A stretch of 64,000 nucleotides of DNA from Phoronis australis (Eukaryota; Animalia; Phoronida). The position numbers and the translations under genes were made by a program. The DNA lies in the NCBI GenBank assembly GCA_002633005.1, contig NMRA01000081.1:819501-883500 (forward strand). Reading direction: 5' to 3'. A model generated the notes under the pieces. The model was not told the origin of the DNA. It did not search any database and saw nothing but the letters and a program-made list of their open reading frames with translations. Shown here piece by piece: positions 17,501-41,500 of this stretch (its first letter is position 1; each line of letters opens with the position of its first letter).

Positions 17501-20500
17501 AACAAAATACAACATAAGACATAAAAAATCCTCGTTATTAATTAACAACCAATTAACGATTTATTTAAACTTTTAAGTGCTACAAAAACTTTTCCCAGAA
17601 GATAGTATAGTATCCTTGAACACCATATCCACATCTGAATATGCAATTTTTTCTTGGGGTTAGTAGATAAAATAGGTGTTTGTACTGCGAGGGACCCTGT
17701 TGGAGGAAGGAGCTTGTTATAGAAGAATCTGAACAGAAAGAGACTCAAACTTCACGAATCAATTTGAGAGGTAGTCGTTCAAACGAGAGCTATCCGTCTT
17801 TCTCGCCAAGGATTGGACTAGCAACTTCTACAGTCCACTTCTAGATGGAAGGGAAGTGTATTTGGGGGTGAGGGGAGAGGGCACTCGGTACTTCGTTGAA
17901 GGTGGAGAAGTATGCACAGAATCAGTTCCTGCTCTAAATTGTAATCGCACGGAAGCCGACACCAGAGTCATCCTTCATGTGATTGAGGCGGATAAGTCCA
18001 CACCTGGCGACATGGTCATAAGGGGTTCTGATACCAACATTCTAGTTCTGCTCCTGTACCATGTCCACTGAGTTACATCCAATATGCGGATGGAGGTTGG
18101 GACTATAATACAAGTCGATCTGCATTATTTGAACGTAACTAAGATTGCTACTGTGATAGGCTAAGCGATGTGTGCTGCACTCCTTGTCCTACACACGTTC
18201 AGTGGATGTCACTATACCTGGGCATTTGTAAGGAAAAGAAAGAACAGACCACATGCAATCGTCGTAATAAGTGATAAGTTCCAGATAGCTTTTGATTCAA
18301 TGAGCCGCGATGTCTTAACAGAAGGTGTAATCAAAATCTTGCAAGATGACTGGTTCTGCTGACCTTAAAATCAGCTGCTGTCTTCAAAGAAATCTTCCAG
18401 CCTCAGCTGATGTAATAGCTCTCTGGAAATTAATTTGGGTAATCAGGTACAAAGTTGTCCTTCGTAAACATGGTTCTAAACAATGAGAGTGACTGTAGCA
18501 TTGTTTAAATTTACATTTTATTTTCTATGTTAAGTTAACTTAACATGATATATGTAGGTAACAGACTGCAAGACTTATATGTAGAAAGTAGTCTAACGTC
18601 AGTACTTCATTAGTTCTGCTATAATTCTACTAGACTCCCAACATAATGGTGCAATTACCAAGAAAACAGTCATTATACAATCATTAGCTGAATTTCAAAA
18701 TAACCACACCATGTTGAAATTCACCATCCCACGAGACGACGATCACTGGTCTTTAGTAGACAGGCATTCAGCACCACCTACAGATCTCATGTAATGCAGA
18801 CAGGAGCTACTTTGCTAGTGGTACAAACAACATTTAACATCTTTCCTGTTGTCATAATGCTGGCAAATTTCTACTGCTGTTTGATGAGAAGGAGCAAACC
18901 TTTTAAAATATCAATGGATGAATTAGGACATCATTACATTTCCCATTGTGGAAAAGAATACGCGACTAAGCCATTGGCTGCGTATGATTAAGCAGATGAT
19001 TTCGTTCGGTGTCAAAAAGCTAAAATAATGAAACTAATCAAACAGTGGGAAGGTCTGATGGTGGAATTTGTTACTCTGTTTTTGAATTAATGAACCATTA
19101 TATAGTAATTGAATTTCTATTCACCAAACCCGAGTCGGTATCAAGGGGAATTCACTTTCATGTTCTCATTACCCTAGAGAACGCCAGTGTGAAAAGTCGT
19201 CTATTCTGGGGATAGTTGACTCGTCGCAGCATGTAATTTCCTGCGTGGAGCACGTTCCTGGGTAATTATCTAATAACGAACTGTCAATTCTTTTCAAGAC
19301 AAAATCACTTCTCATCTAACAAGTTTAAACCAATTTTGTAACAGTGATGGTCTACATCAAAAGATTTCTTGATGGAATGTTGGCTCAGTGCCAATATATA
19401 TTTTTTTTTGTAAAGATGGTTCTTCCTGTTATGGGTGAATACCTGTGAAGGACTAATTCTGCTTTTGGGTTTATCAGTACCATATTTAAACGTCAAGGGC
19501 AAAGGAACAGATTGAACTGGACAAGAAAAAAGTTATTACCATAAAGGCCAGAGTTTATGATTCTTTGTCCTGATTTGAACATATTAATCTGGTGGGAACA
19601 AAAATTGCGCAAACTTTTGGCATGCTCAATAAACTCTCGAAATATCATTATTTATTCACACTCACAATTTATTTCTCTTTGATCCACACACACTAAACTT
19701 TTGGCATCACAGCATGAGGATTGTTAAGCAGATTTCCATTTATTCAGAAACGAGTTTACGAATAACCACAACACTGTTCACTCATACATTTTTATATTAT
19801 TAATAAACACATTATTCCTCCATCTCTCTATCTCTCTTTCTCTCTCTGTCTCTCCTAGGCTTTGGCATCATGTACTTTAATTTCTTTGTGAATTGTTTGC
19901 TTGCTATGTCAGTGAAACAACCCACGTGCATGTACTGGGAATGTAAAACATTTGATTTTGTAAGCAAAGCACTGTCTATGTAGTCATTTCTATAGATTTG
20001 GCTGTACTTGACTATCACCAGGTAGCGACCTTTCCTGTTGCTGTTCTTCTCATGTGCTAGTTGAAACACGCCCATACAAGTTTTACTCTTGATAAATTGC
20101 CTTGAAACGATCAGTATACAACGACGACTTTTCTTAATTGCTACGTTGATGTTTTCTTGAAAGGAAATCCCTAGCTCAAAATCTCTGTCGGGAATGATTA
20201 GTTTATAATGCATTGTGCCATTCTCAAGATCTGCGCAAAGTTTCTCTCTGACAAATTTACGTTGGTCATCGATATCTGAGTGATAGAACACGAACGCGTC
20301 ATAGTTTTCGTATTTATGCACTTGCTCTAGCATGTGACCAAAATGAACACCAATGTGATTATACAGCACAATTGTTATTTGTTGTCGGTATCTGCACCCG
20401 ACAAACAGCAGGACGCCAACAACAGCAATAGCACACGCAGTTCCAATGAGAATTCCTTTGAAATTTATAATGCAGTCATAATCCATCAGACTTTGTAAAC

Positions 20501-23500
20501 CAGTGAAGCCACAAGTAACATTAGCAAAGTATGTTTTTGAAAATTTCAGATTTTTCAACCATCTTTGAAGACTGCAATCACACTGTAGTGGATTTTCATG
20601 TATTTGGATCGTGATCAGTGTTTTCTCCAATTTCCGTTCTTGCAAAACGTCTCGAATTTCCTTGCCAATTTCTTTTATTTTGTTGTTGTGCAGGTACAGT
20701 TCTCTCAAGTTTGTCATATCCCTGAAGACAGAATGACTCATTTGGCTGATATTGTTAAATGATACATCCAGAACAATAACTTGCTTCCAGTACTTTCTAC
20801 TTTGTTTAAGTTCTTCTATCTCGTTTTTATTCAAGTATAATTTTAGATTTCCTGAAGGCATTTGATGAGGTAGATCAGTCAAGTGTTGACCAGTGCAGTT
20901 CACACTGGTGATTGATGTATTTGTATAATCTTTAATACACGAGCAGCCATCTGGACAATTTTGCCTCACGGTACATGTGGCGTAAAGTTCCGATTTATTC
21001 AGATTCATCAAACGTTTGCCTGTAAATTGTTCGCATGCGATGGAGGTCACATAATGCACTAAACATTTTAACAAGTCGGGTCCTTTTTTTTCAGAATGTT
21101 TTTGACATAGAACATCGCTTTGACACTTTTCACTGAATGACTGAGTTATTCGTTCATTTCCCCACTGACAAACACTCGCTTCATTTAGTATTCCGATTAG
21201 ATAGTTGCACGTTGTTTCCCAAAATGAGTGGTAAAAAAGGTACACGTCGCAGTCACATTTCCATTTATGTCCTGTAAATAATGTCTGTATACTGTTTCCA
21301 AATGTTGCATCAATGTCAAAGAGGTCGATATATGTCACAGTGCGGTAAAGTGTAGTAAAAAGATCTTGGATCTTAAAGAGCAGTATTGTTTCATAGTTGA
21401 TTTGACTTACGTTATTGTAAGACAAGTCGAGACATAACTTCGGTTGTTTCCCTTTGGAGCGCGCTGAATGTTTAATATCCCACTTGTAGGAATTGGAAAA
21501 TGTCTTAATATTGTTGTAGGACACATTTAAATACCTAAATGTGTTCTTGTTGAGCATTAGGTACCACGAGTCCAGCTCTGTCAATTTATTGTGTGCCAAA
21601 TTGATGCTTTCCAATTTTTGTAGATTTTGCCATGGAAATGCCTCTAGCGAAATACGCTTAATCTTGTTCCAAGCTAGGTCGACAGTTTTCAGTTCCCTAA
21701 ACTCTCTAAAATCGCCACTGTGTAAGCTCTCTATCTTGTTCCTGGATAAATTTATATGTTGGACTCTTACGAAGCATTTGATATCCATAATGTTGCGAAA
21801 GCTGTTGTTTGATACATCTATGATGGTGATGTTTGCCAAGCTGGTGCACAATAGCCTTGTGCTTAACCCATCAAGACCAAGACTCGTGGCCTGAAAGCAT
21901 TTCACGAGAGGCCGTATACTAGTCAATCCTTTCCATTCACTCTTGTCATTGCTTCGTATAACCACACAGTTGCAGCTTACTTCTGTGATAAGACACAGTA
22001 GTATCACAAAGATGTGCAAACACTCCATGTTGTTATCAGACTTCCAGTTGCGAGTAGCTAATGATTACACTCTGCTGGTGTCCAGTTCAGGTACTGCCTG
22101 TGCAATCAATGTTGATGTTACTTATCATGATAGTGCGATGTTTGAAAACCTAGATTAAGAATTTCAGTATTAAGTGTTTTCTGATAGCTAGTGCCCAATA
22201 GAATTCTGTCATTTTTTGCAAGATATGTCTCAAAATGGAGTAGGAGCAGCGAGCATTATGTCTGCACCTTCCTGCTACTTATAATCTCTACACCTTCCTG
22301 TTCCTTATAACCTCTACACCTTCCTGTTCCTTATAACCTCTACACTTTCCTGTCCATTATAATCTCTACACCTTCTTGTTCATTAAAGTCTTTATAACAC
22401 TTGACAGATTTTCGTGTGGTGCTCTCAGCATGACATATTTTTTCAAAAAAGTGGCAAAAGCTTCAACAGAATTTTCCAGTTTGGTGTTTGAATTTTTAGA
22501 ATCGTTTTAAATGTAATTTGTCCATTATGTCTCAGCTCGCTGATATGATGTTTTTGGTTTCTTGCTTACCTTGAGTTTCTCTAGCAATAGACAGCCTTTG
22601 TGAATTCGTTTCACTTTTCACCAAAAAAAAATTTTAGTCCTTCATTTTCAAGCAGTTATGGTCTACATTCCTGAATTTTCAACTGTAGGCTTTCAAACAT
22701 CGCACAATCACATATCATCATGTGATTGATATTTTTGTGAAAATTGCCATTTTTGTTAAACATGAATTTCTAAAAAAGGGAAAATGCGGATGTGTTCAAG
22801 TTTTCTCTGAGCATTTTTGCTGTCAATTCACAAAGTGCCTAGTCTCATCAAAGGCTCTTTTTAAAACAACTCCCTTTGTTGTCACAAAACTTTTTTGAGA
22901 CATGGTTCTCTGAGGGATAAACCATAAAAAGCCAGAAGTTCAGTGTTTTCTCTTAATAGTTCGTGTACTATTAGTTCGTGCGAGGCCCTTGAAACATGAC
23001 GTTTGTCTCTAATAGTTCGTACAGTAGGAGTCCGAGGGAAAAATAGGTTGTACACATATTTGGGTCAGAAAAAATAATTCATTCATGTTTTTGGATAGAT
23101 GAAATGGAAATTTGTATGCTTATAAAAGAACAGGAACGTAGTGGATTGCATACAGAAACAATGTGTGGCAGATGGCATCGCTGAAAACTGAGGTACTGAA
23201 GCTGGCGTTGTGTTTGAAGTTAGCGAACATGGGAAGAAAATAAAGTGACAAAGTGTTCAAGTTTATATTATATCAGTTTGGGCGTCCGCTGTATCTCCTA
23301 AACGTTCACAGGATTTTGATGAGGTTTGACCAATGTATTCCTATAAAGCTGACGACAGTTGACGACGAAACGACTTTCGGACATATCGGACTACCGGTGT
23401 GCCTCCTAGATTTACTGTGTCTTCAAAGGTTCTCAACGGATGTCCATAAAAATTGGCAGATAGGCATCTATTAGTGAGGTGACTCGAGCCATTTATTTCC

Positions 23501-26500
23501 GGATTCATTCAAGGTGTTTTGTGCCACCTATTGGCCATTTTTGTTGTTTTTAAGTTAGTTTTTGGCATCCGTTCCTCTGTCGACCAAATCACTCTAAAGA
23601 TGATTGTGAAAATTAGCATGTAAGGGGACGGTTGACGATAACTTTCCGACAACTTTGGTTACTATGGCGCTTCCTGGTGACAGTTTTCTTGTGCCCCTGT
23701 CTGAATCTCCTAAGCCCTCTGCAGGATCTTTATTAAATATAGCATGTGTATTTATATGAAGGTAACAACGAAAGACGACTTTCTGACGAATCCGACGAAC
23801 ACTGTGCCCCTAGTGGCAATTTGAATTTTTCCGTTTTCCTGTTTCTGTGAAGTTCCTTGACAGATTTTTGTGAAATTAGGTAAGTGGCTTTCTTTTACAG
23901 AATCTATGACATTTTCTAGTTTTCAGACCGATTCAACGTATTTTGTGCCATCTAGTGGACTTTTTTACTGTTTTTTAGTCTGTTTTTGGCATACGCCCTC
24001 TGTCAACCAAATCACTTGTAGGATGATAGTGAACATTGGCATGTAATGTTCCTAATGTGAAGAGGAGGGCTGACGATTTTCCGTCGTCCTTGACAGCTGT
24101 GGTGCCTCCTAGCGGCAGTTTTTATGCTCATGGCTGTATCTCCTAAACCCTCCGGAGGATTTTATTAAATTTAGCAAGTGTATTTATATGAACTTGACAA
24201 CAAACAATAACTTTCGGATGGATTCGACTTCCGATATGCCCCTAGTGGCAATTTTAGTTTTTTTTTAATCTTACCTCTGTATGTTCAAAGGTCCTCAACA
24301 GATTTTCATAAAATGTGGCAGATACGCATCTATTAGTGAGCTGACGCTATCCTCTGGATTTCCGTTTTATTCGTGGCATTTTGCACCACCTATTGGCCAT
24401 TTTTACAACAAATACAAACTGGATGCAAATTTCTAGTTGAGTTCAATATTAGTCATCCTCTTTTCTCTAGTCCTAAGGTCTTCACTGGAGTTATTTACAT
24501 TGTGTTTCAAAAATGTACACTGAACTTGTGTTACCTACCTTTTGACACTTCTAAGAATGGCTTTCCTACCAGTGTATGACATGAGTCCTCCAAGGCATTC
24601 ATGACAGACCCAGAGCAGCAAGCAAAAGGTTATAAGTTCCTTTAATAATACCAATACATATTCTTTAATCAATTAAATGCAAAATGTTAAAGTTACAATG
24701 ACAAAGTAAATTTATTAGTCATTCATTCTAGCAAGCTAGTTGTCCCCATGAAATTTTGTCAGATTTTTTTTAGTAATGTGTTATTAGTTGACCGTCTACC
24801 TCCCAACGCTAAGGAAAGAAATAACTATGCAGGAGTTGTGGCACAGCTTGTGGACGTCGTTGGACATCGAGGACTTTAGTTGCCCACACTGTAATAGTCT
24901 CAGTGGCCAGCTCACATGGTCATTAGTAAAACCGCCAAAATACCTTTGTATTCATATCTTACGAACCGCGACTAATGGTGAAAAAATCAACACAAAGATT
25001 TCCTCGTATGACCTCTCCGGCTACAAAATAAAAGCAGTCATTGAACACCATGGAAGAAACACGACGGGTGGTCATTACACATGCTGTGTTAAATCGTCAG
25101 CATGGGAATGGATAAATTTTGACGACTCTACAGTCACAAGTACATCCAAGCCTCCCCTGGATGCCTACATTGCAATATATGAATTATAAACCAACAAAGG
25201 AAATCAACATAAAAAATATGGCGCAATTTCAACATCAACGTCGCATATCACATCTGACGCAGCCAAGTCAAGTTATTTTTGAAATTCATCCTGGTACGGG
25301 AATTGGGGATAGTTAGGCCTATAAAAGATCTTTAACCCAGCCGCAGAGCGTCTAAAGCCGCGCACCGTACCAGTGACTGCTGGCAACTCATCGGAGACTC
25401 AACTTTAACATCCTTCGCCACAGAGATAACAACTCTTGGGCTGTCTCCGGTGAGTCCATTCTTTGTTGAATGATGTTTAGGTAAATTTAACTGCATCAAG
25501 ACAAGCTAATGGTGTTTGATGTTGGTAAAATCAGGCTCTGTTTTAAAGTACCAAGTCAGTCCCAAAGTTTAAATCCTGACACAGCAATTTTTAAACTTGA
25601 CTCATTGTGGCAAAATTCAAACTCATTACTGCGATGAGTCAAAACAGCCTCCTGTTCAGTAATCCTAAATAGCTTTGAAGACATATACCAGTTTTCAGAT
25701 GGATTCGAAGTGTTTTGTGCCATCTAATGGCCATTTTTATGTTCCAAATAAACACCCATAGAAGCTCACCATTTGCGGTGCATTGTGGGCGCATTTCAAT
25801 ATTCCGCGTTGCTTTTGTCACTGTTTTTATCTCTAAGATATCTTCCAGATAAGTGCAATACTCGTGACGATACAAAAGATGCACTAAGGTTATAATTATG
25901 ACCAGATAAAAACTAGTTATAATTATGGCTAGCTAAAAACTAGTTATAATTATGGCCAGCTAAAAGCTAGTTATAATTATGGCCAGCTAAAAGCTAGTTA
26001 TAATTATGGCCAATTAAAAGTTAGTTATAATTATGGCCAGCTAACTGCTAAACATGTTTATTGTCCTCTTGGCACCAACTATGTGCTGCACTGATTTTTT
26101 TTACTTCAGATATTTCTGTTCCTAGGCATCACAAGAAAGGTGGTAATTACTCGCAGACAGCACAAAGCTTCATCATTGCATTCTAGTAGTTTCTAAACGG
26201 GTCATACGTATTTTTAGACAATCGTAATGTCGGCATTACATTCTGATGTAGCGAGTCTATCTAATTGCAATGTATGGAAAACATTTGTGCAATATCACGT
26301 GACCCTCTGTGCCTGTCTCTTACTTTGGACTGGGGATTCTCATTACTGTGACAAAAGAGGGATGCTTTTGAAATATAAACTTGTTATGGCTCTGAATGGA
26401 AGTCCTTGGCTGACTATGATCCTTGTAAGTGCCAGTTCCATCAACGTGACTGCACTGAAAAGTCATTTATAGTTATGGGATGCGATGTCACTGGTTGGGA

Positions 26501-29500
26501 TGTAGCAACGAGCTAGATTCAAAATTATTTAGGTGCCATTTTTGAAAGGGTGGATTCTAGATTTTGGAAATAAACTGAAACAAGGTTGTTTCAGAGCACA
26601 CTTCAGGAATGTACTTGATGTCTGTTTGCATTGAGGCTCATGTCCAAGTTTATGGATATGATGTCAAGCGATGTGGAGGTATATGGAGTCTTTGTTGTGG
26701 TGGTCTGTGACGCCACTTCTGGCAATGGCATTGAATAAATAATAGAAATGAAAAGTACTGTCCAAGCTTCTAGATGATGTTTGTTTTTAACCTGGGTCCA
26801 TTTGCATAAAAGTTATACACTGGGTAGCAGTTATGATGTATTATCATAACTTATATTGCATTGCCATTGTTCAACAATGCATTTGGCACCATGCATAAAC
26901 CCCAAGTTATGTAGAGGGTAAATTTTAAAATTTTATGCAACTTAGTCCTGTACTATTTAGACTTTAGTTTACAATGTGAAATTTGTTTTAACCAACAAAT
27001 ATAACCATAATGCAATTATTGATAATTTGCATGTGCATAGTTGTTATAACTTGTCCTGTACCAACAGTTTGAAATTATAATCTGCCGGTGTCCCTGCAGG
27101 GGCCTTTATTGAAGTGAAGAAGGAGGAGTGGGCTCTGGGAATAGAGAGCTGTCTCAAGTCCCTCATCCACTCTTACTGTTGCCATGACTACCATGATGAG
27201 CGCGCCCTACAGGAGATTCTGAGGAGACAGTACCCGGCCACCTTTAAACCGTCCATTATCGTTAACAATTTCAGGGTGAGAACTTTGAAATTCCTGTTTT
27301 GCCTGTCTTTGAGATGCTTTACTGATTAACAGTCCTAATGAGATTCCAACCACTTGCAATAAACTGATACTTGATGTTTTGTTAGTGAACCTAAACACAT
27401 GCCCGTGTATCACATTACTGTCAAGGTGTTGTCTGTTGTTCTTTGTGCACTAAAGGTGTTCAGTAATTCATTTTATGATAGTGCAAAACTTCATTTTAAG
27501 AGAGGCAAATTTGATACCAGCTTGTTCATTAGGAAAATACTCTCTGCCACATTTTTGGAACACCTGTACTTAAAGCATGTTGAAGGTAATATGTTCAGGT
27601 AATATGACTATTACCTTAGGACATCCCTTTTCACACGATACCACGAGTCAAATGTTTCGATTTAGTTTTGTGAAGGCCTCAAAAATAGAGTCATGAAATA
27701 AGGCGTGTTAACACCTCTTGTTTATACTTTAGTCAGATTAGAGCTCATAAATCTTGGCTTAAAACACTGTTTCATTCTTATTTTATCTTACTTTGAAGTT
27801 GATTATTATTGACTGCTTGTGCTGAGTGTGAATTATTATCTCAACTTATAACTATGATAATTACAGAATGTAGAAACGGGTAAAACACTCCTCTAGTACA
27901 CTGATGAACAGTCACACCCATGGAGAGTCACACCCATGAAGAGTCACACCCATGAAGAGTCGCACCCATTAAAGCTTGAAAGCTTCCAGATTTTGAAGTG
28001 CTTTTACCTGTTTCTACATTACGTAATTTTATCTGGTCTCAATATGTATCATTTATACAGAAATCATAGAAAGAATGATTGTATGGCTTGATGTGGTTTA
28101 AACTTTGTGAAACTGATCTTCAGATTTTAACTTGGTTTATTTTTTGTGATTTGTTTTTCAGACTGAAGTGTATGATGTTTCCAGATATGTAAGTTGGGTT
28201 TTGTATTTTGTTTTACATTCATTTGTTCACTAGCAGTAATTACATTTTGTGACAGATTTGTTTCTTTATGATAACAATTTAACTGATTTTAGTGGAAACT
28301 TTCATGACTATTTCTGTCTTGTCGGAACAATTCTGATTGCTAAAGACTCGTATTATAACCATTTTATCGCGTGTTTGTATTAAGTCAGTGCGAAATTTAT
28401 TACACGCTTTTACTTGTAAAAGAAACTTTGTTATTTTCCTGAGCTTGTCTGTAACATTAATCTTTTGTGAAATTCTCAATGAAATGTTCTACTTTCAGAA
28501 AGCCCAGTCGAGATATCCCACAGTCTTTGACATGCTGAGTGTCCAAGAACCAGTTGTGATGAACACTCTGGTCAATGAGGTATGTATCCTTAACAAGGTG
28601 TACCTTGATGGATTTCTAAATCTTTGTTTCCTATGAAAATTTTATTGTGTTCCAAATGCTAGAATAAGAAACATGACTAAATATGCTGCTACTGTGTTTT
28701 GGTTCTGCTANGGTCTCGATATGTATCATTTATACAGAAATCGTAGAAAGGAATGATTGTATGGCTTGATGTGGTTTAAACTTTGTGAAACTGATCTTCA
28801 GATTTTAACTTGGTTTATTTTTTGTGATTTGTTTTTCAGACTGAAGTGTATGATGTTTCCCGATATGTAAGTTGGGTTTTGTATTTTGTTTTACATTCAT
28901 TTGTTCACTAGCAGTAATTTGTATACATTTTGTGACACATTTGTTCCTTTAAGATAACAATTTAACTGATTTTAGTCGAAACTTTCATGACTATTTCTGT
29001 CTTGTCGGAACAATTCTGATTGCTAAAGACTCATATTATAACCATTTTAATGCATGTTTGTATTAAGTCAGTGCGAAATTTATTACATGCTTTTACTTGT
29101 AAAAGAAACTTTGTTATTTTCCTGAGCTTGTCTGTAACATTAACCTTTTGTGAAATTCTCAATGAAATGTTCTACTTTCAGAAAGCCCAGTCGAGATATC
29201 CCACAGTCTTTGACATGCTGAGTGTCCAAGAACCAGTTGTGATGAACACTCTGGTCAATGAGGTATGTATCCTTAACAAGGTGTACCTTGATGGATTTCT
29301 AAATCTTTGTTTCCTATGAAAATTTTATTGTGTTCCAAATGCTAGAATAAGAAACATGACTAAATATGCTGCTACTGTGTTTTGGTTCTGCTAATGACTA
29401 CCCTGTATTTATTCACCTTTAACCTATACCCTGGAGGATAATTTCCTAAACTGGCATTTCATTTAATATTTTCATAAATATCGGCCTGTTTCTGTGATTT

Positions 29501-32500: not shown

Positions 32501-35500
32501 AGTTCAATTTGCCTGTATGATGTTATGTAATTACAGAAAATTATGGAACTGAAGACTATAGAAGACCCTGCCCCAGTAGATGTCTCCACTTTGGTAAGTG
32601 ACTCACTAGAAACATTTAGCTTGTATTGATCATTCTTGGGTCTTGTGGAACATTCTGTTTGTGGTGCAGAAGTGCTTTTTTCAGGAGTTGTAATGATTTC
32701 TTTAGGAGTAGAAATGCCCTTTTCTCGAGTATAATGCCTTTTTTGCAAGGCGAAATTTTTTGCTTTTTTTCACGAGTATAAATGCCTTTTCACTAGTAGA
32801 ATTGACTTTCGGGAGTAGAAGTGCCTGTGATATTCTCTACTTGGTCATTTATCCACGTTAACATCTTTATCGTTAGGAAGATGAACTGGAAGAGCTAAGA
32901 CGTCAGATCCAAGCTGGTGAGGATAAGGTGAAACAACTGATGGAGATGCTGGGCCAACAGAGGGAGCAGTTCTCAGAGTCGGAACACATGTATGCAGAGG
33001 TTGACGAGAAGATAAAGGGCGTGGCTAGCAGTGTTGATCCTTTGAAGGTAATTACTTTCTGGCAGAGTATGATGGGCTGTCGCAGTTGGGGGTACTCAAG
33101 TCTGTAAGCGTAAAGTTAAACACTAACTTTTGTATGCTAAGACTATACAGCCACTGCATGATAGACTGGGTTCAAATGAACTGTCCTGTGAAGATGATAT
33201 GTTACGAAAATGGATTTTTGTTGCTTCGCAATTTTTCACTATCACATCCACACATTGCATATCTCTTCATTCTTGTGGAGTCCGAACTGATGCGTGTGTA
33301 TGCGAGGTTACATGTTATAAAACAGTTTTTATTGTCTGTGCGTTTTCGTGGCAGATAACGACTGATAAAGTAGCTTACAAAATGAGCTAATATATAGGAT
33401 TGCTTTATTTGACTGTGTGACTGCAATTCTCATTGTTTAACCTTGTGTACATGTCTTAACATGATCCAGGAGTTTTTCTATTCTAGGAGGAACTTAATGC
33501 AGTCGAAGACAAGTTGGAAAATGTTAAGGCAACCAAGAAACATTATTCAGACAAGGTCAAAGAACAAGAAAAAAAAGTCAGCGCAGCCACTTCGTCTTAT
33601 GAGAAATGCAGAGCTGATGTAGAGGTAAGTATTGACCGGACACTTGTAATGGCAACTTTACCCAGAAGAGTTAGCTACTGCAATCTTGTCTTTCACCGAC
33701 TACTGGACCTAGTGTTCAAGGCTGTAATGATATTCACTATGAAAGTCATGGGACAGCTCCTGATGAAACAAAATAGTTTGACAATGAGAATCAAGAATGC
33801 TGTCGAGCGTGGATACTCGTGCACGTTATGCTTAGAAACAAGAAGACACCACATTTTTTCCCAGAGTATATATTGTATGAATGGAATTGAATTTTGAGGT
33901 TGTAGGTTACCTTGGTTATATTAATAAAAACAACCACGGTTTTAAATCGACTTGACATGTTACCAAGGACTGAATTTCTTGAATATTATTTTAAACATTC
34001 ATACACCCATCAAACTAAATTTTTGAAATACTTGATGGTCCCAGTATCTTATTATTTGAACACATACGTGTGTTGGTCAACACATATGCGTGTTGGTCAA
34101 CACATATGCATGTTGGTCAACATATACGTGTGTTGGTCAACACATACCTGTGTTGGTCAACACCAATGTGGTGTGCTTGTAAAACTCTAAGTTGTTCTGC
34201 ATTTAGGACTCCACCAATAAAGTGATAGAAAAATTTGGTGATATGACGACTGATAAGCCTCGTCTGAAGCCTCTGCAGTACTACGAGAGTAAAATTCACC
34301 AGATTGGCAAACAGATAACGGCCAAGGAGCAAGAGTACGTTTACTTGTATTTTTAATCTACTGGTAATTTACTTGTCTTATAGACCAGAAATTTGTATCC
34401 AGTTGTATTAGTATAAAGTCTTGAAAATAGATGGAATCAGTTGTTAATAAAGTTGTGATGCTCAAGTTGTTATCGACATTATGTTGACAGTTGTCAATCA
34501 CTCAGTTCGTTGTCGTCACTGGTGAAACAAGTGACTTTCATTTCCATTTGCTTTGAATTTGGCGCATTTTAGTCACTTAATCCTTTGTATGTTGGATGAT
34601 ACAAAACTGCCTCTCTCCCTGTTGTCTTCTGATTGCAGGATGTTCTTGACGTCACGGACTTTCACCTTCCCAACAGGGTTGTTGTATTTTGCGTAAATGA
34701 TAACAGCATATGAAAAATGTCTCCTTTTAGGACGGGAAGTTCTGAAGAGATCACTAGGACGTACAATGAAAAAAGGGACGCATTCATTGAAGTGAAAAAA
34801 GAAATAAGCAAGTTCCAGAACTTCATTAAGGTAAGCATGTTGCAGTGTGTTACAAGGTGGCGTCACTGTGGATCACCTTTGAACTCTTGCCCTCTCTCAG
34901 GTATTTGTATCCCTTTACATGAGGTTGCTTCTTCAGTTTAGTGGTATGCTCCAATGTGTCTGATTGGTTGGCGTTCAACTTTTGTCAAATACCTGCAAAC
35001 ATTTCTAGATTTGGGACTGTTCCTTTACTTAAGGACTCAAAAATGTAACATAAGAAGCAGGGCTTGGAATTTTCCGCGGAAACGCGGATTTCTGCTTTTT
35101 TCAAATGTTCCGTCCGCGCATTTTATTATATTTCAGCGTAAAAAAAATCGGATTTGATATAAAATTTCCGCGGCAAATTCCTTTCTTACCGCGGCGTTGC
35201 CGACGACGTTCACCTCGAAAAGCGGAAGTTGCTCTTTATGTTTCGGAGGAACGTAAATTGTCAACATTGCCGGGGCATCTGGGATAGCGTGGTGGGATTT
35301 TCAATGGCGTCTCGTGTGATTGTAAACCGCGTTGACAAATACTACGGCTCTGCAGCCAAAAATGTGTGGGGGCTGGAGTGGAGGAGTGGATGGACGAGAT
35401 AAAAAGACGCACAGACGCATGCTACTGATGGTGGTAACGTTTTTTTTTTTTTAGTCCTACCGATTTTTGTCGGTGAAAGGTTCACATCGACTATGACTAT

Positions 35501-38500
35501 TTCAAGGCTGGGCCGTAAAAGTTTCCACGTTTTTTGTCATTGGTCATTCCAAGCCCTGAAGAAGATGACATTTTTCCTCTCGGTTAATTAAGAAAGCTTG
35601 AATCCATGGCCGTGTGCATTTCCAAACACACACGGGCATGTTGTTGAATTTCCCAGAATAATGTGAGAACTATTTTAATATCTGAAGTACACGAATTTTT
35701 ATCATTGAATTGTTCATGGATTTAGGCAGAATGTTTCTAGAAATAACAGGTTATTTGATCAAAATGGAGCATTATATTGAACATGTTATGCCAAGATGCG
35801 TGTTGGCAGTAAAGAGTCTTCAATTTGGAATAAGAATAGTATTGCATTTCCTCAATACAAGTTTTTAGAAAACTTCTCATTAGCTTTGTAAAAGTCTACA
35901 TTTTTTGATGTAGACTTATTTAAACCTTTATACCAATCTGTCATTTATTGGTGTCGTGTGGCCATGTCTTTCAATAAGATTATGCAAAAACGAAAGGCAC
36001 ATTCATATCAAAACATCGCATCAGTAACGTGGCCAACATTTCATTTGATAAAATATTGAAGATGAAATCTCAAAAATGGTTTATTTTTCATAAAAGCAAT
36101 AAACGCCTTATCAATTGATATCCGCTTATGCAAAAGCAGGACGTTTTAAAAGCTATAATTCCTATCAGCATCTTGGAGAACAGTGCTTAAGACATAATGC
36201 GTGAAAGTTTCAAATGAATCCGTTCCGTCGTTCATTGTTCACATTTTTTTTACATTGCAAATATGTTCAAATAATCACTCGTGTTTGAAAACAGATGTCA
36301 ACAGTGAAGTTGGTAATGGTCGGATATAATGCACCTAAAGTTTGAGGACCAGTTTTCTCCTCTGAATAATGGGCATCAAACTGGTTGTCAATATATGTGA
36401 TCATGTTATATCCGATTATTGCCATGAAGTCAGCTGATCTGAATAGTTACACCCATTTTGTTTTTTTACTCATTTAGGTGACACCTTTCTACCAGTACCT
36501 CATTCTATCATAAATTTAATGACTTTAATTTACTTGTTGTTTATTTGACCACGATTTATGCTGCTTAGAAGTTTGCAAAGGACTACACAGTGATTGTATA
36601 CATTTATTTGTATGTATGTATATATTGTTCATTTCTGTCCTTAGAAACTTAGTGACATCATGAAAGATCGCCAAAAGCAGTACTTTGATCTGCGACAGAT
36701 TCTTGCTGTGCGGGCACGCTGGTTTTTCATAACCATGTTGAACAACCGGGGCTACACAGGGAAGATGTCTTTTGACCATCGCAAAGAAATCTTAGAACTC
36801 CAAGTAATGACGGGCATTGTGTTCAGTTTGTATGTGTGTTGGCTGGCTTTTGTTAACCACTAGAAGTGACCTGCAGCCACTGTGCACTTTATGCCAGAAC
36901 AATTCTTCATTATGAACTGTTGCCACTTATTTTGGATGCACGTGATTTAGAGGATGCAAACTTAAAAGGAAACAAAATGGAATTTGTGAGTTTGAGCACA
37001 GTGTCGAGCTTAGAGTTAAATAGTTGAAGACTAAAATTTGGAGCTGCTATGAACTCTGCTTCGTCTGTAAAAAACTGTCTTCACCAGTCTTCACCTGAAA
37101 ACATCCCTTATTAGTTCTTTGCTCAGATAAGAAGTGATTTCCATTCTTGTAAGAATTGGCAGACCAGACTCAATCACTCCTTTGATGTGGCAAGTCATTT
37201 TATGCCCTGCCTCAAGACACAATGAACTGTCAGTTCCTTCCAAGTCTACTAACTGCTACTTATCTGGCTAAGTTGAGATCAGTGTTACTAAGTGAAAAGC
37301 TAGTCTTCCGGTTGAGGGATCTTCATTTGGACGTGAATTCATAGCAGATTTAAGAAGAAATTTACTGCGCTCCTGCATAACGCACATGGGGCTGTGCAGT
37401 GTCACCTGTGGTTAACAAAAGCTTTATACGGGCTAACTCAGGTCTGTTTCTCCAATGTCTGTCGGTTGCCTAAGCACTCTTTTTCTGCAGAAATTGAATT
37501 GTGTCGAAGTGGAGTTGGAGGAAAAAATTCGCCAATTGCGTCGCTCCTTATGCAACCGTGTCAACCTGCACTTTGTGCCGAGGCTGCAAGAACTCAATTA
37601 CTCTGGCTATCTCACCTTTGATCATGCAAGACAGGAACTTGACATACAAGTAATTAGCAGGGACTGCATGTTGCCCGCTCATGTTTTCAGGTGTTCTCAA
37701 TTTGAGGCTCCTTTTGTTCCGCTGTTTGGTTCACAGAATCGTGAATCTTTTTGCGAAAGACCGTAAAAATGCTAGGCTCTTTTTGATTTGTACATTTCTT
37801 ATCTTTATTTATGTCCTAATTTACTTCTTGTCTAATCTTTGAAAGCTAATTGTGAATGTATTTTTAACTTGTCTATCTTCACGATGTGCTAACCTCTGTC
37901 CCTGCATTTCTTAGTTTAATGTTTTGAACTCTTCACTCAAACTGTGGCTTTTCTGTGGGGATGCTCTACCTAAATTTGGTATAAATACCCCACCATGATA
38001 GTTAAGCAATAAAAAGCCCTGGTGTAAAGCCTTGTGGCCGATAATGTACCCTCTGGGCCAAAAATGTACCCTTTATAGCGACACATGCCCTTTTATCCAA
38101 GCAGCAAAAGTACCCCCAATCTTTTCTTATGACTTCGGTATGTTACTTCTGTACATTAATCATATACCCCTGTTATGTAGGTTCTCTGTACATTAATCAT
38201 ATACCCCTGTTATGTAGGTTCTCTGTACATTAATCATATACCCCTGTTATGTAGGTTCTCTGTACATTAATCAGATACCCCTGTTATGTAGGTTCTCTGT
38301 ACATTAATCATATACCCCTGTTATGTAGGTTCTCTGTGCATTAATCATATACCCCTTTTATGTAGGTTCTCTGTACATTAATCATATACCCCTGTTATGT
38401 AGGTTCTCTGTGCATTAATCATATACCCCTGTTATGTAGGTTCTCTGTGCATTAATCATATACCCCTTTTATGTAGGTTCTCTGTACATTAATCATATGC

Positions 38501-41500
38501 CCCTTTTATGTAGGTTATCTGTGCATTAATCATATACCCTTGTTGTGTAGGTTCAGCCAACGTCTGGTCATGTTCAAGCAACCAATGACATGAGGTCACT
38601 GTCTGGCGGGGAACGTTCTTTTTCCACCGTGTGTTTTATCCTGTCACTATGGGAAGCCATGGAGTCACCCTTCAGATGCCTGGACGAGTTTGATGTCTAT
38701 ATGGTATGCACAGTTGAATAAATAAAGTTGAACCATGTTACAATGTATCTCCTGGGACTTACCTGGTGCAACCCAAGTTAGCTGTTTTCAGTAGATGAAC
38801 TTGTGGAATAAAACATCTTAGCTGAGTGTTACGTGGTTTTACTGCATTGCTGAATGCATTCCAGTCAATTTAACCATCCATACTTGAAAATTGTATGCTT
38901 TTTAAGTGCCACGTGTGAGCGTGCGCATGTTTGCATGTATAGGTGTGTATATGGGGGTGGGCTACATTATGCCATCTTTCATGTCCGTCTGGTATCTGCT
39001 TTTGTTTCTCCAAAACGTACTGGATGGATGTTCGTGAAATTTTGCAGATGGTACATTCAAGTGAATTTTTGGATGGATCCAAGTACCGCTGTGACTGCTA
39101 CTGGCGGTTTTATTTTGTTATTTTTGCCTCTTGCCCCTGTATCTTCAGAGTTCGTTGGCGGGTGTTCATGAAATTTGGCAAATCAGTACCTATTAAAGAG
39201 ATAACAACTCTGTATCCTTTTTTGGATTTTGTGAACATGGGCCCTTTTGTTCACATTGCAAAGAGTGGAGCTGATGATGATTTCAGACAGCTTTGACTAC
39301 TGCGGTGCCCCCTAGTTGCACTTTTGTTGTTTCTCCTAAACCTTTTGCAGGAAGTTTGCAATGATGGTGGCAACGTATGATGAGGACATTCAGACTGGTC
39401 TAACTACCGTTGTGCCCCTTTTGGCAATTTTAATTTTTTACATTAATCTTCGAAGTTTGTTGACAGATTTTCATAAAATTTGGCAAACGTGTTTCTATTA
39501 AAGAGATGATATCGTCTCCCCATTTTCGGATGGATTGGACATATAGTATGCCACCTAGTGGACATTTGTATTTTATTAGAGTTCACTTGATTTTTGGCGT
39601 CTGCCTTTCTATTGACATGTGTGATCCTACTGGAAGTGCTTGGCTGATGATGAGGTTTGGACAGGTTTGACATTTGTGGTGCCCTCTAGTGGCAATTTTT
39701 TAAGCTTTTACCTTAAATTCTGCCAAGATTCTTGATGGATCTTCGTTAACTTTATACGTGCTTCTATTGAGGAGAGTACTAGTGACATAGATTTTGGGAC
39801 AAATTCGACTTCTAATAAAGTCCCTTTGTGACAATTTTTTTTTCTTTGCATTCGTTTTCATATCTGTCAAGGTCCTTAATGAATATTCATGAATTTTGGC
39901 AGATAAGTTACTTTCACATAGACGGTAGCTCCTGCTTTAAGTTATTTCACATGGATTTGACTTTTGTTGTGACCTCTAGTGGTGTTGTTATCGTTTTTGT
40001 TATTGTGTCTATATTCTTTGTGTCTTTGTCGCCCGCCTCCCTATACTCCAAACTTCTTGAAGAATCATGATGAAAGTTGTCGGTTGTGATCCTGTTCAAG
40101 AGAGCATTGCTGTTGTGCTTTTTTACGTTTACTGGCATTGCTCTCTATAGTGGGCATGAACACCATCAACCGTGATTTATCGATAACTGTGTGCCAATAT
40201 ATTAGTGCTTGCAGCTTGACAACAGCTAATTGGCGATTTGTTGTCACTTGTATGTAATGGTTCTGTTTCTGCAGGATATGGTGAATCGTCGTGTTTCCAT
40301 GGAGATGATGTTGGAGGAGGCCCGTTCACAGCTCAACAGGCAGTTCATCTTCTTGACCCCTCTTGATATGACGTAAGTGCCGGGGACTTCCCGTGTTAAA
40401 TTAGCGACATTCCAATCTCCAAATTTTCCACTATGCCTCAGTATCTGCCGAGCTCTTTTGTGTCCTTGTTTTCGCATAATTGGAGTTCCACTTGTTATTT
40501 GTTGGTGTCATAATCTTTACAAGTTTTTCTCAGCTGCATTATGTAGTTTGTCCTTCCAGTGCCAACAAAGTATTACTGCTGTGTTATTCACTGCAAACTC
40601 CAATGGGAGAAAATTGGATAAACTTGACAAATATACAAGGATGCCTAATGTTAAGTTGTTTGTCTTCCCGGCTTAAATCAACACGATCAACGACTAGGAA
40701 ATGCAGAAAAAGTGGATTGAAAAAAGAAGTTCATCAGGCGGATTGTGAACTGAATAGAATCCCCTTTCTTGAAGATACCCTTTCGGTTTCCGAAATTACC
40801 AATTTGCTAAAAGGGCTACTTATAAGTTAAGATGTCTTCTCATAAGATATTGAAATCCAGTCACCTTCTTTAACATTGAATTCCAAGCTTGGACAATTGT
40901 ATGATGCATTTTTTGTACATATTGCTGTGCGAGCTTGAATGAGATTGCTGGTCAGTGATATGATTCAAGGTGCTGTTCTTAAGTGAATTCTGTCGTGCAA
41001 AACTTATTTTCTTACCAAATAGTGATCAAAATTAAAAGTATTCCATGGTCTTTTGGCACATAACAATGTAGCTTGTGTAGTAGTCTCAACTGTACTAAAC
41101 TAGCAAAGTGATGCAAATGTGTGAAACCTTGATTGTGGTTGGCCCAAAAAGGTTAAATAATGTTCAGGCTTGAATGATATTGGCCAAGCTTGAATAATAT
41201 TGATCATACTTGAATAATGTTGTTTGGTTAATCTTGTTGATATTAATATTCAAGCTTGTTGACATATTCTAGGCTGTATTAAAGGGGATTTCACCCTAAA
41301 ATGCTAGTCAGACCGTTACTGACACTCTCACTCAGGGTTGTAAACGATTCTGAGGTTGATCCTCTTAATTCCAAATTCGATCCCTTTAATGGTACAAATT
41401 CCATGCATGCGCCCCTTAACTCCACACATGCCAACAATCCGACATTTCCATAGGCCAAACTCCAGACCCAAACCTTGAGTGCGAGAGACTGTAGTTAAGG

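Follow-up and report, generated by a model that had tools for sequence, protein, structure and literature searches.

Alternative use of a tandem exon pair encoding the neck and head entry of SMC6 in Phoronis australis, with a predicted hairpin in the intervening intron

Results

The SMC6 locus and its exon pair

The SMC6 gene lies on the + strand and spans approximately 8.5 to 41.9 kb of the window, i.e. the whole stretch of 64,000 nucleotides of Phoronis australis DNA analysed here. The best scores of twelve of its exons were obtained against molluscs (701-738 bits), followed by amphioxus (660) and vertebrates (631-648), in a reference set that left out annelids, nemerteans and brachiopods. 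Towards the 3' end of the gene, two exons on the + strand, A (36645..36803, canonical) and B (37491..37649, diverged), lie between a shared upstream exon (34731..34830, +), which ends in phase 0 and is joined to the preceding part of the gene in the reads (34334>34731), and a shared downstream exon (38551..38703, +), which carries the ABC signature (matching human SMC6 972-1021) and the Walker B motif. The 3' end of the upstream exon corresponds to the consensus of the loose read ends preceding both A and B, and the start of the downstream exon to the consensus of those behind A.

Both exons are 159 nt long, in phase 0/0 and with open frames, and have AG acceptors and identical CAA/GTAAT donors. 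In a gapless alignment they share 15 of 53 residues and 63 of 159 bases, with a BLOSUM62 score of 74 (the maximum over 10,000 shuffles of B was 21). The coordinates, length, phase, splice sites and residue identity that a previous sequence-only reading had assigned to this pair were all reproduced. Judged from these sequences, A and B are tandem-duplicated paralogues of one SMC6 exon. Exon A matches human SMC6 919-969 (E 1.8e-7) and B weakly matches 930-969 (E 0.12); Pfam gave 0 hits for either exon, and searching the three introns that flank them revealed no third copy. An assembly artefact, in which A and B would represent two haplotypes, was ruled out, given the 40% base identity between the exons and the reads that match each of them at 99% identity or more.

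Several other features of the gene deserve mention. The signature exon takes its acceptor from the final unit of a minisatellite (38148..38554, +, 37 nt x 11) in which each unit repeats the acceptor word TAG/GTT, so that ten decoy acceptors precede the exon and only the last copy opens a coding exon. The intron before A contains abundant interspersed repeats at 35058-35558 (MITE-like, with 13-bp terminal inverted repeats) and approximately 36340-36391. Further upstream, a tandem duplication with a unit of about 680 bp (28035-29393, 97% identical) contains identical copies of a hinge-region exon, at approximately 28508 and 29191, reflecting either a recent duplication of the exon or an error of assembly. 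A single 750-codon frame on the opposite strand (19815-22064, -), with leucine-rich repeats and a TIR domain, by its domain content encodes a Toll-like receptor and lies antisense within an SMC6 intron. Additionally, a 133-codon frame within an SMC6 intron (24788-25186, +) presumably resembles a C-terminal fragment of a ubiquitin-specific protease.

RNA reads and the choice between A and B

The Phoronis australis RNA comprised three raw runs and one contig set (X1 to X4), with about 19% of each raw run read. Junctions were deduced from loose read ends, with a listing threshold of 3 reads; behind the upstream exon, these loose ends were dominated by repeat reads. The reads at A and B are stranded, sense and at least 99% identical on both exons. 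The upstream exon is joined to A (34830>36645) by 5 reads in X1 and 10 in X2, and to B, with A skipped (34830>37491), by 3 reads in X2 alone, while A is joined to the downstream exon (36803>38551) by 3 reads in X1, all at the last TAG/GTT copy of the minisatellite. These three junctions had been proposed from the sequence, and all are present in the reads. From a common upstream exon, splicing leads alternatively to A or to B, with A included in most transcripts and a minority skipping A and using B. The ratios of the upstream-junction reads (5:0 in X1 and 10:3 in X2) rest on too few reads to show specificity for a tissue, the germline or infection, and SMC6 exon coverage was absent from X3 and X4.

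The joint from B to the downstream exon (37649>38551) falls under the 3-read threshold, and the depth at the last bin of B (0.96 x 51 = 49 letters) fits a single read stopping at the donor. At the first bin of B, the depth (0.71 x 51 = 36 letters) equals that of the three upstream-junction reads (3 x 12 letters) and thus leaves no room for reads joining A to B. No such joint is listed in the reads, at the same threshold, at low depth and with few reads leaving A's donor. Skipping of both exons was likewise absent among the reads, with repeat reads dominating the loose ends behind the upstream exon. The intron between A and B has a read depth of up to 2.6 in X1 and X2, and the intron behind B a depth of zero; read-through into the A-B intron, in which no polyadenylation word was found, would stop after 19 codons.

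If A and B were independent cassette exons, they would sometimes be included together, which would preserve the frame (159 + 159 nt), and a rare A-to-B joint could be missed with so few reads leaving A's donor. We nevertheless regard this as very improbable: neither the listed joints nor the depth arithmetic provide for such reads, inclusion of both exons would give the protein a second head-entry helix and set of strands, and swap isoforms occur in seven mollusc species with both copies in none of the members listed. Either-or use of the two exons is therefore the reading in which we have high confidence. The mutual exclusivity proposed in the sequence-only reading stands insofar as A and B are each joined to the upstream exon; strict exclusivity goes beyond these few reads.

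Residues and partners of the encoded segment

The exon corresponds, without gaps, to human SMC6 918-970, S. cerevisiae Smc6 952-1004 and S. pombe Smc6 967-1019 (the S. pombe numbering was taken via the peptide table in the supplement of PMC7297730, and that of S. cerevisiae was checked against 11 residues named in PMC10636319). It encodes the C-terminal neck helix, with which Nse4, Nse5 and Nse6 make contact in yeasts, and about half of it codes for the head helix and beta-strands; the earlier description of the exon as an SMC6 neck segment is accordingly right for the helix but not for the head half. In S. pombe, the available text of PMC7297730 reports that L965A, L972A and R975A weaken Smc6-Nse4 complexes only. 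The equivalent of L965 is an I encoded in the shared upstream exon, and L972 and R975 fall at exon positions 6 and 9, which are M and R in A and E and L in B. The A form (I, M, R) has all three Nse4-specific positions of the kleisin gate in place, and the B form (I, E, L) keeps only the first.

Conservation was evaluated on 81 distinct rows, drawn from 103 protein records (selected by a G39/H45 anchor) and 31 hand-picked locus rows. Position 9 is R in 76 of the 81 rows, all 76 correctly registered; the other five comprise abalone alternatives that are shifted by one position and skip forms from mammals. Position 35, R or K in 77 of 81 rows, has also lost this residue in B, and B has P at helix position 30, where P occurs in 0 of 81 rows. 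Over the first 13 residues, the net charge is +2 in A and -2 in B. In AlphaFold runs on oyster stand-ins, the head region was modelled with low confidence (block pLDDT over residues 941-980 of 50-63 for A and 33-49 for B) and only 7 of 28 alignment rows were of B type, so that no weight is placed on the difference.

In yeast, contacts with Nse6 correspond to exon positions 12, 15 and 23, and contacts with Nse5 to positions 18, 25, 29 and 33 (PMC10636319, PMC9191643, in the portions available). Nse4 and Nse6 compete for the neck, and its occupancy sets the ATPase rate (available text of PMC10636319). By analogy, a second SMC5/6 whose latch is loose may arise through splicing; that B yields a stable protein with weakened Nse4 binding is a tentative proposal, to which we give slightly less than even odds.

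The exposed surface of this segment offers another explanation, in which the swap was selected to alter the head-neck surface seen by a viral antagonist or some other partner, Nse4 binding being incidental. According to the accessible part of a preprint (bioRxiv 10.1101/2025.11.11.685253), the viral protein HBx grips F933, L939, L943 and Y944 of human SMC6; all four fall in the exon, at positions 16, 22, 26 and 27, and B alters three of them (V>N, W>L, F>H). The faster evolution of the alternative than of the canonical exons in oysters, and the differences of the alternatives between lineages, would also suit such a surface. Yet HBx arose in mammalian hepadnaviruses, and the key motif in birds and mammals (same source), and a search of the literature by title found no invertebrate SMC5/6 antagonist; we consider this explanation unlikely.

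Divergence of exon B and evidence for selection

In an exon tree, the branch of B (1.8) is considerably longer than that of A (0.49). The A-B identities are unevenly distributed over codon positions 1, 2 and 3 (18, 32 and 13 of 53; position 2 vs 1, p=0.011; position 2 vs 3, p=0.0004). When A was mutated neutrally to the observed or to half the observed distance, in a simulation without indels and without A's own evolution, an open frame with AG/GT ends survived in 0.25% and 1.3% of 20,000 runs, respectively, and the codon-position pattern arose in about 0.4% of the neutral runs. B keeps the core of the segment (L2, L16, R17, L20, R23, F28, L32, Y37, G39, F43-H45 and L50), including buried residues of the helix and strands. 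In view of the intact frame, the codon-position pattern and the simulation, exon B looks to be under selection, and the earlier suggestion of selection rather than decay is supported.

B might alternatively have been functional once and now be a relaxed, weakly used exon, or an off-switch giving an inactive SMC6, its losses then being decay. Such a history would account for the absence of R9 and R35, both kept almost everywhere, for the P at position 30, and for the long branch, low inclusion and lack of a detected orthologue, but it sits poorly with intact frame and splice sites, retained core residues, the codon-position pattern and two improbable stems around B, and we think it improbable.

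A predicted duplex between the ends of the A-B intron

Two perfect inverted repeats occur at the exon pair, one of 15 bp within the A-B intron (687 nt) and one of 13 bp bracketing B. Among 1000 shuffles of 36640-38140, a single one had a stem of at least 15 bp and none had two of at least 13 bp; in a test of the 13-bp stem by itself, 15 of 1000 shuffles reached that length. The 15-bp core (36846-36860 with 37408-37422) extends to a predicted duplex of 75 bp, pairing 36804..36897 with 37373..37469 (+ strand) at -87.3 kcal/mol. Shuffled sequences gave a mean of -51.5 kcal/mol, with 0 of 500 as strong, the duplex was the best of 624 slid window positions (runner-up -58.6), and four other SMC6 introns gave -31 to -39. 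The folding z-score of the whole region is -0.31, so the signal is a specific duplex and not general stability.

The 5' arm starts at A's donor and the 3' arm covers a branch-point-like CTAAC (37433-37437). Directly 3' of the duplex lies a second branch-like word, CTAAG (37470-37474), the putative branch point of B, which is followed by the pyrimidine tract and B's acceptor (37470..37490 in all, +). In the ensemble, the pair probability is at least 0.97 from donor position +6 onward; positions +1 to +5 are paired only in part, and the duplex buries the CTAAC at 37433. Folding would leave about 15 unpaired nucleotides between A's donor and the word at 37470, as compared with 630-670 nt along the linear sequence; for donor and branch point, the spliceosome requires a spacing of roughly 50 nt (PMC5740500, in its available part).

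The second stem pairs 37092..37104, upstream of B, with 37681..37693 (both +), which begins 32 nt past B's donor, in a perfect 13-bp helix whose formation would loop out B. Its predicted pair probability is about 0.98 when the first arm of the duplex is blocked and 0 otherwise. The 36846/37422 pairing crosses the 37092/37693 pairing, and because ViennaRNA cannot fold crossing helices, this exclusivity of the stems is partly built into the model. No perfect stem of more than 11 bp brackets exon A.

The duplex might instead be what is left of a fold-back transposon that inserted into an intron once short, with exclusivity achieved by proteins or by effective shortness and the hairpin tolerated rather than selected. 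Inverted-repeat elements are common in the SMC6 gene (e.g. the one at 35058-35558), and the spacers between tandem copies at two loci of other origin (L003 and L007, see below) are only 70-71 nt. Nevertheless, the outer ends of the arms coincide with the donor and with the branch-point region, a target-site duplication is absent at the four boundaries tested, and the arms are single-copy in the window, with no pile-up of repeat reads, whereas real repeats nearby reach hundreds-fold depth. We hold this origin to be unlikely, and conclude from the folding models that the intron duplex probably contributes to the exclusivity of A and B.

The exon swap in other animals

A search with the signature exon found 1232 proteins, and 10 clusters were examined among the 120 matches listed (for the largest cluster, 15 of 39 members listed). 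Five oyster and two abalone species possess RefSeq isoforms in which a diverged version replaces the exon; the probable origin of these isoforms from tandem exons is deduced from the proteins. Two unionids, a scallop and amphioxus have the canonical exon alone among the members listed, and no mollusc isoform among them contains both copies.

In metagenome DNA, two tandem copies with AG/GT ends in phase 0 were found in 3 of 80 loci (tblastn detail was obtained for 11 of the 80): the diverged copy comes first in L001 (spacer of 161 nt) and L003 (70 nt), and the canonical one in L007 (71 nt). At another four loci (L014, L015, L041 and L060), a single copy accompanies the two flanking exons. A 12-bp perfect stem brackets the diverged exon of L001 (reached in 15 of 500 shuffles), and none of the three spacers folds better than shuffled sequence does (z of 0.61, 0.49 and -0.42 for L001, L003 and L007). 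In the spacer of L007 (3747-3817), a branch-like CTAAC follows the donor after approximately 44 nt, a distance that falls inside the steric limit, and a short donor-complementary word is present. Strongly diverged neck segments of SMC6-like genes, within about 50 bases of the signature match, were also seen at L020, L022, L024, L026, L028, L029, L032, L045, L051-L054, L058, L059, L062, L066, L072, L074, L075, L078 and L080; these fall into two sequence groups and are possibly intron-poor paralogues or retrocopies.

The same exon is thus swapped in molluscs and metagenome loci, but no direct orthologue of B was found: searches with B alone gave 0 of 55 candidates and 0 hits in 1.84 billion, with a query of 53 residues that is weak in itself, as a search with A alone was also blank (0 of 8). 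The mollusc alternatives are 1-2 residues longer than B, share 5-7 of its first 28 residues and are no closer to it than canonical exons are. Among oysters, identity is 38-50 of 55 for the alternative exon vs 47-52 of 53 for the canonical one. The diverged copies formed one clade in 0 of 200 bootstrap trees (32 rows, 53 columns), and an AU test did not reject such a clade (p 0.233). R9 is retained in the alternative exon of five other lineages (oysters, abalones, L001, L003 and L007), which speaks against a single conserved neck switch; loss of the latch does not generally accompany the swap and could represent decay. The exon swap thus appears widespread in the sequences compared, with the latch loss seen only in B of Phoronis australis.

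Discussion

Our preferred reading, to which we assign a probability of roughly 0.55, is that A and B are alternatively spliced, with an exclusivity that is likely enforced by the intron hairpin, and that the minor B form likely binds the N-terminal helix of Nse4 weakly. In the proposed mechanism, the ends of the A-B intron would pair over 75 bp and place A's donor beside the likely branch point of B, at a distance (about 15 unpaired nt) below the requirement of the spliceosome, so that A could not join B and its donor would have to reach the downstream exon or wait. A waiting donor would explain the reads retained in the A-B intron. The crossing 13-bp stem, by looping out B, would favour A; given that the duplex is far stronger than this stem and A is nevertheless the major form, kinetics or proteins must also decide.

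At the protein level, and by analogy with the yeast mutagenesis, B would keep the core of the coiled coil and head, with E and L sitting at the place where Nse4 docks, and a complex containing it would rest neck-open and with low ATPase activity, similarly to Nse6-bound yeast Smc5/6. A more far-reaching version, in which invertebrates obtain two SMC5/6 motors from one gene and an RNA zipper in this lineage selects a latch-less SMC6 unable to dock the Nse4 N-terminus, fixing through splicing the open-gate, low-ATPase state to which Nse6 brings the yeast complex, with the surface attacked by a viral antagonist in humans being replaced as well, is speculative and in our opinion rather doubtful.

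The gate between kleisin and neck is central to DNA loading and ATP timing in SMC complexes, and the work of SMC5/6 is split between repair, loop extrusion and the silencing of foreign DNA. Two SMC6 forms that differ solely in a 53-residue segment, one of them without mapped Nse4 contacts, would constitute a natural separation-of-function test, and the hairpin would be a compact, testable mechanism of exclusivity outside insects and vertebrates. No published account of SMC6 exon swapping was found in the literature, as judged from titles and the starts of abstracts and with subscription papers outside the scope; the swap was found only as database isoforms, the RefSeq mollusc entries being unremarked, and the class of mechanism is already known. 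What is new here is the intron hairpin and the loss of Nse4 contacts in B.

As in the tandem-duplicated mutually exclusive exons described in the available parts of PMC5740500 and PMC6071210, A and B are of equal length and phase and encode one protein segment. In contrast with steric exclusion of the type covered in the first of these sources, the linear distance from donor to branch point exceeds 600 nt here, and the frame does not enforce exclusivity. Competition between a docking site and selectors (the Dscam type) does not fit either, since the stems have no arm in common and pairing across them is weak and dispersed (-22 to -26 kcal/mol). The closest parallel is the bidirectional pairing at exon 4 of Drosophila srp, which, in the portion of PMC6071210 available, involves two complementary pairs with no shared docking site and a joint pairing that needs a pseudoknot; the same holds at A/B, where two crossing pairs with near-perfect cores of at least 12 bases are present. 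In srp, however, each pair surrounds an exon, whereas here the first stem lies wholly in the intervening intron and stem 2 alone brackets an exon. In another two-exon cluster, RNA structure and steric hindrance act together, to judge from the title of the paper; the helix tabulated for that cluster (PMC6027157) is about 15 bp over 1000 nt, compared with the 75 bp predicted here.

Among the relatives, the RefSeq SMC6 isoforms X1/X2 of oysters and abalones have the same exon replaced by a diverged copy, and the order of the copies differs among the tandem-copy DNA loci. Regarding the protein, the yeast Smc5/6 neck gate involving Nse4 and Nse6 (PMC10636319 and PMC7297730, in their available parts) concerns the same surface, with neck occupancy setting the ATPase rate; in yeast, the partners switch on one Smc6, whereas in Phoronis australis the neck itself would be swapped by splicing.
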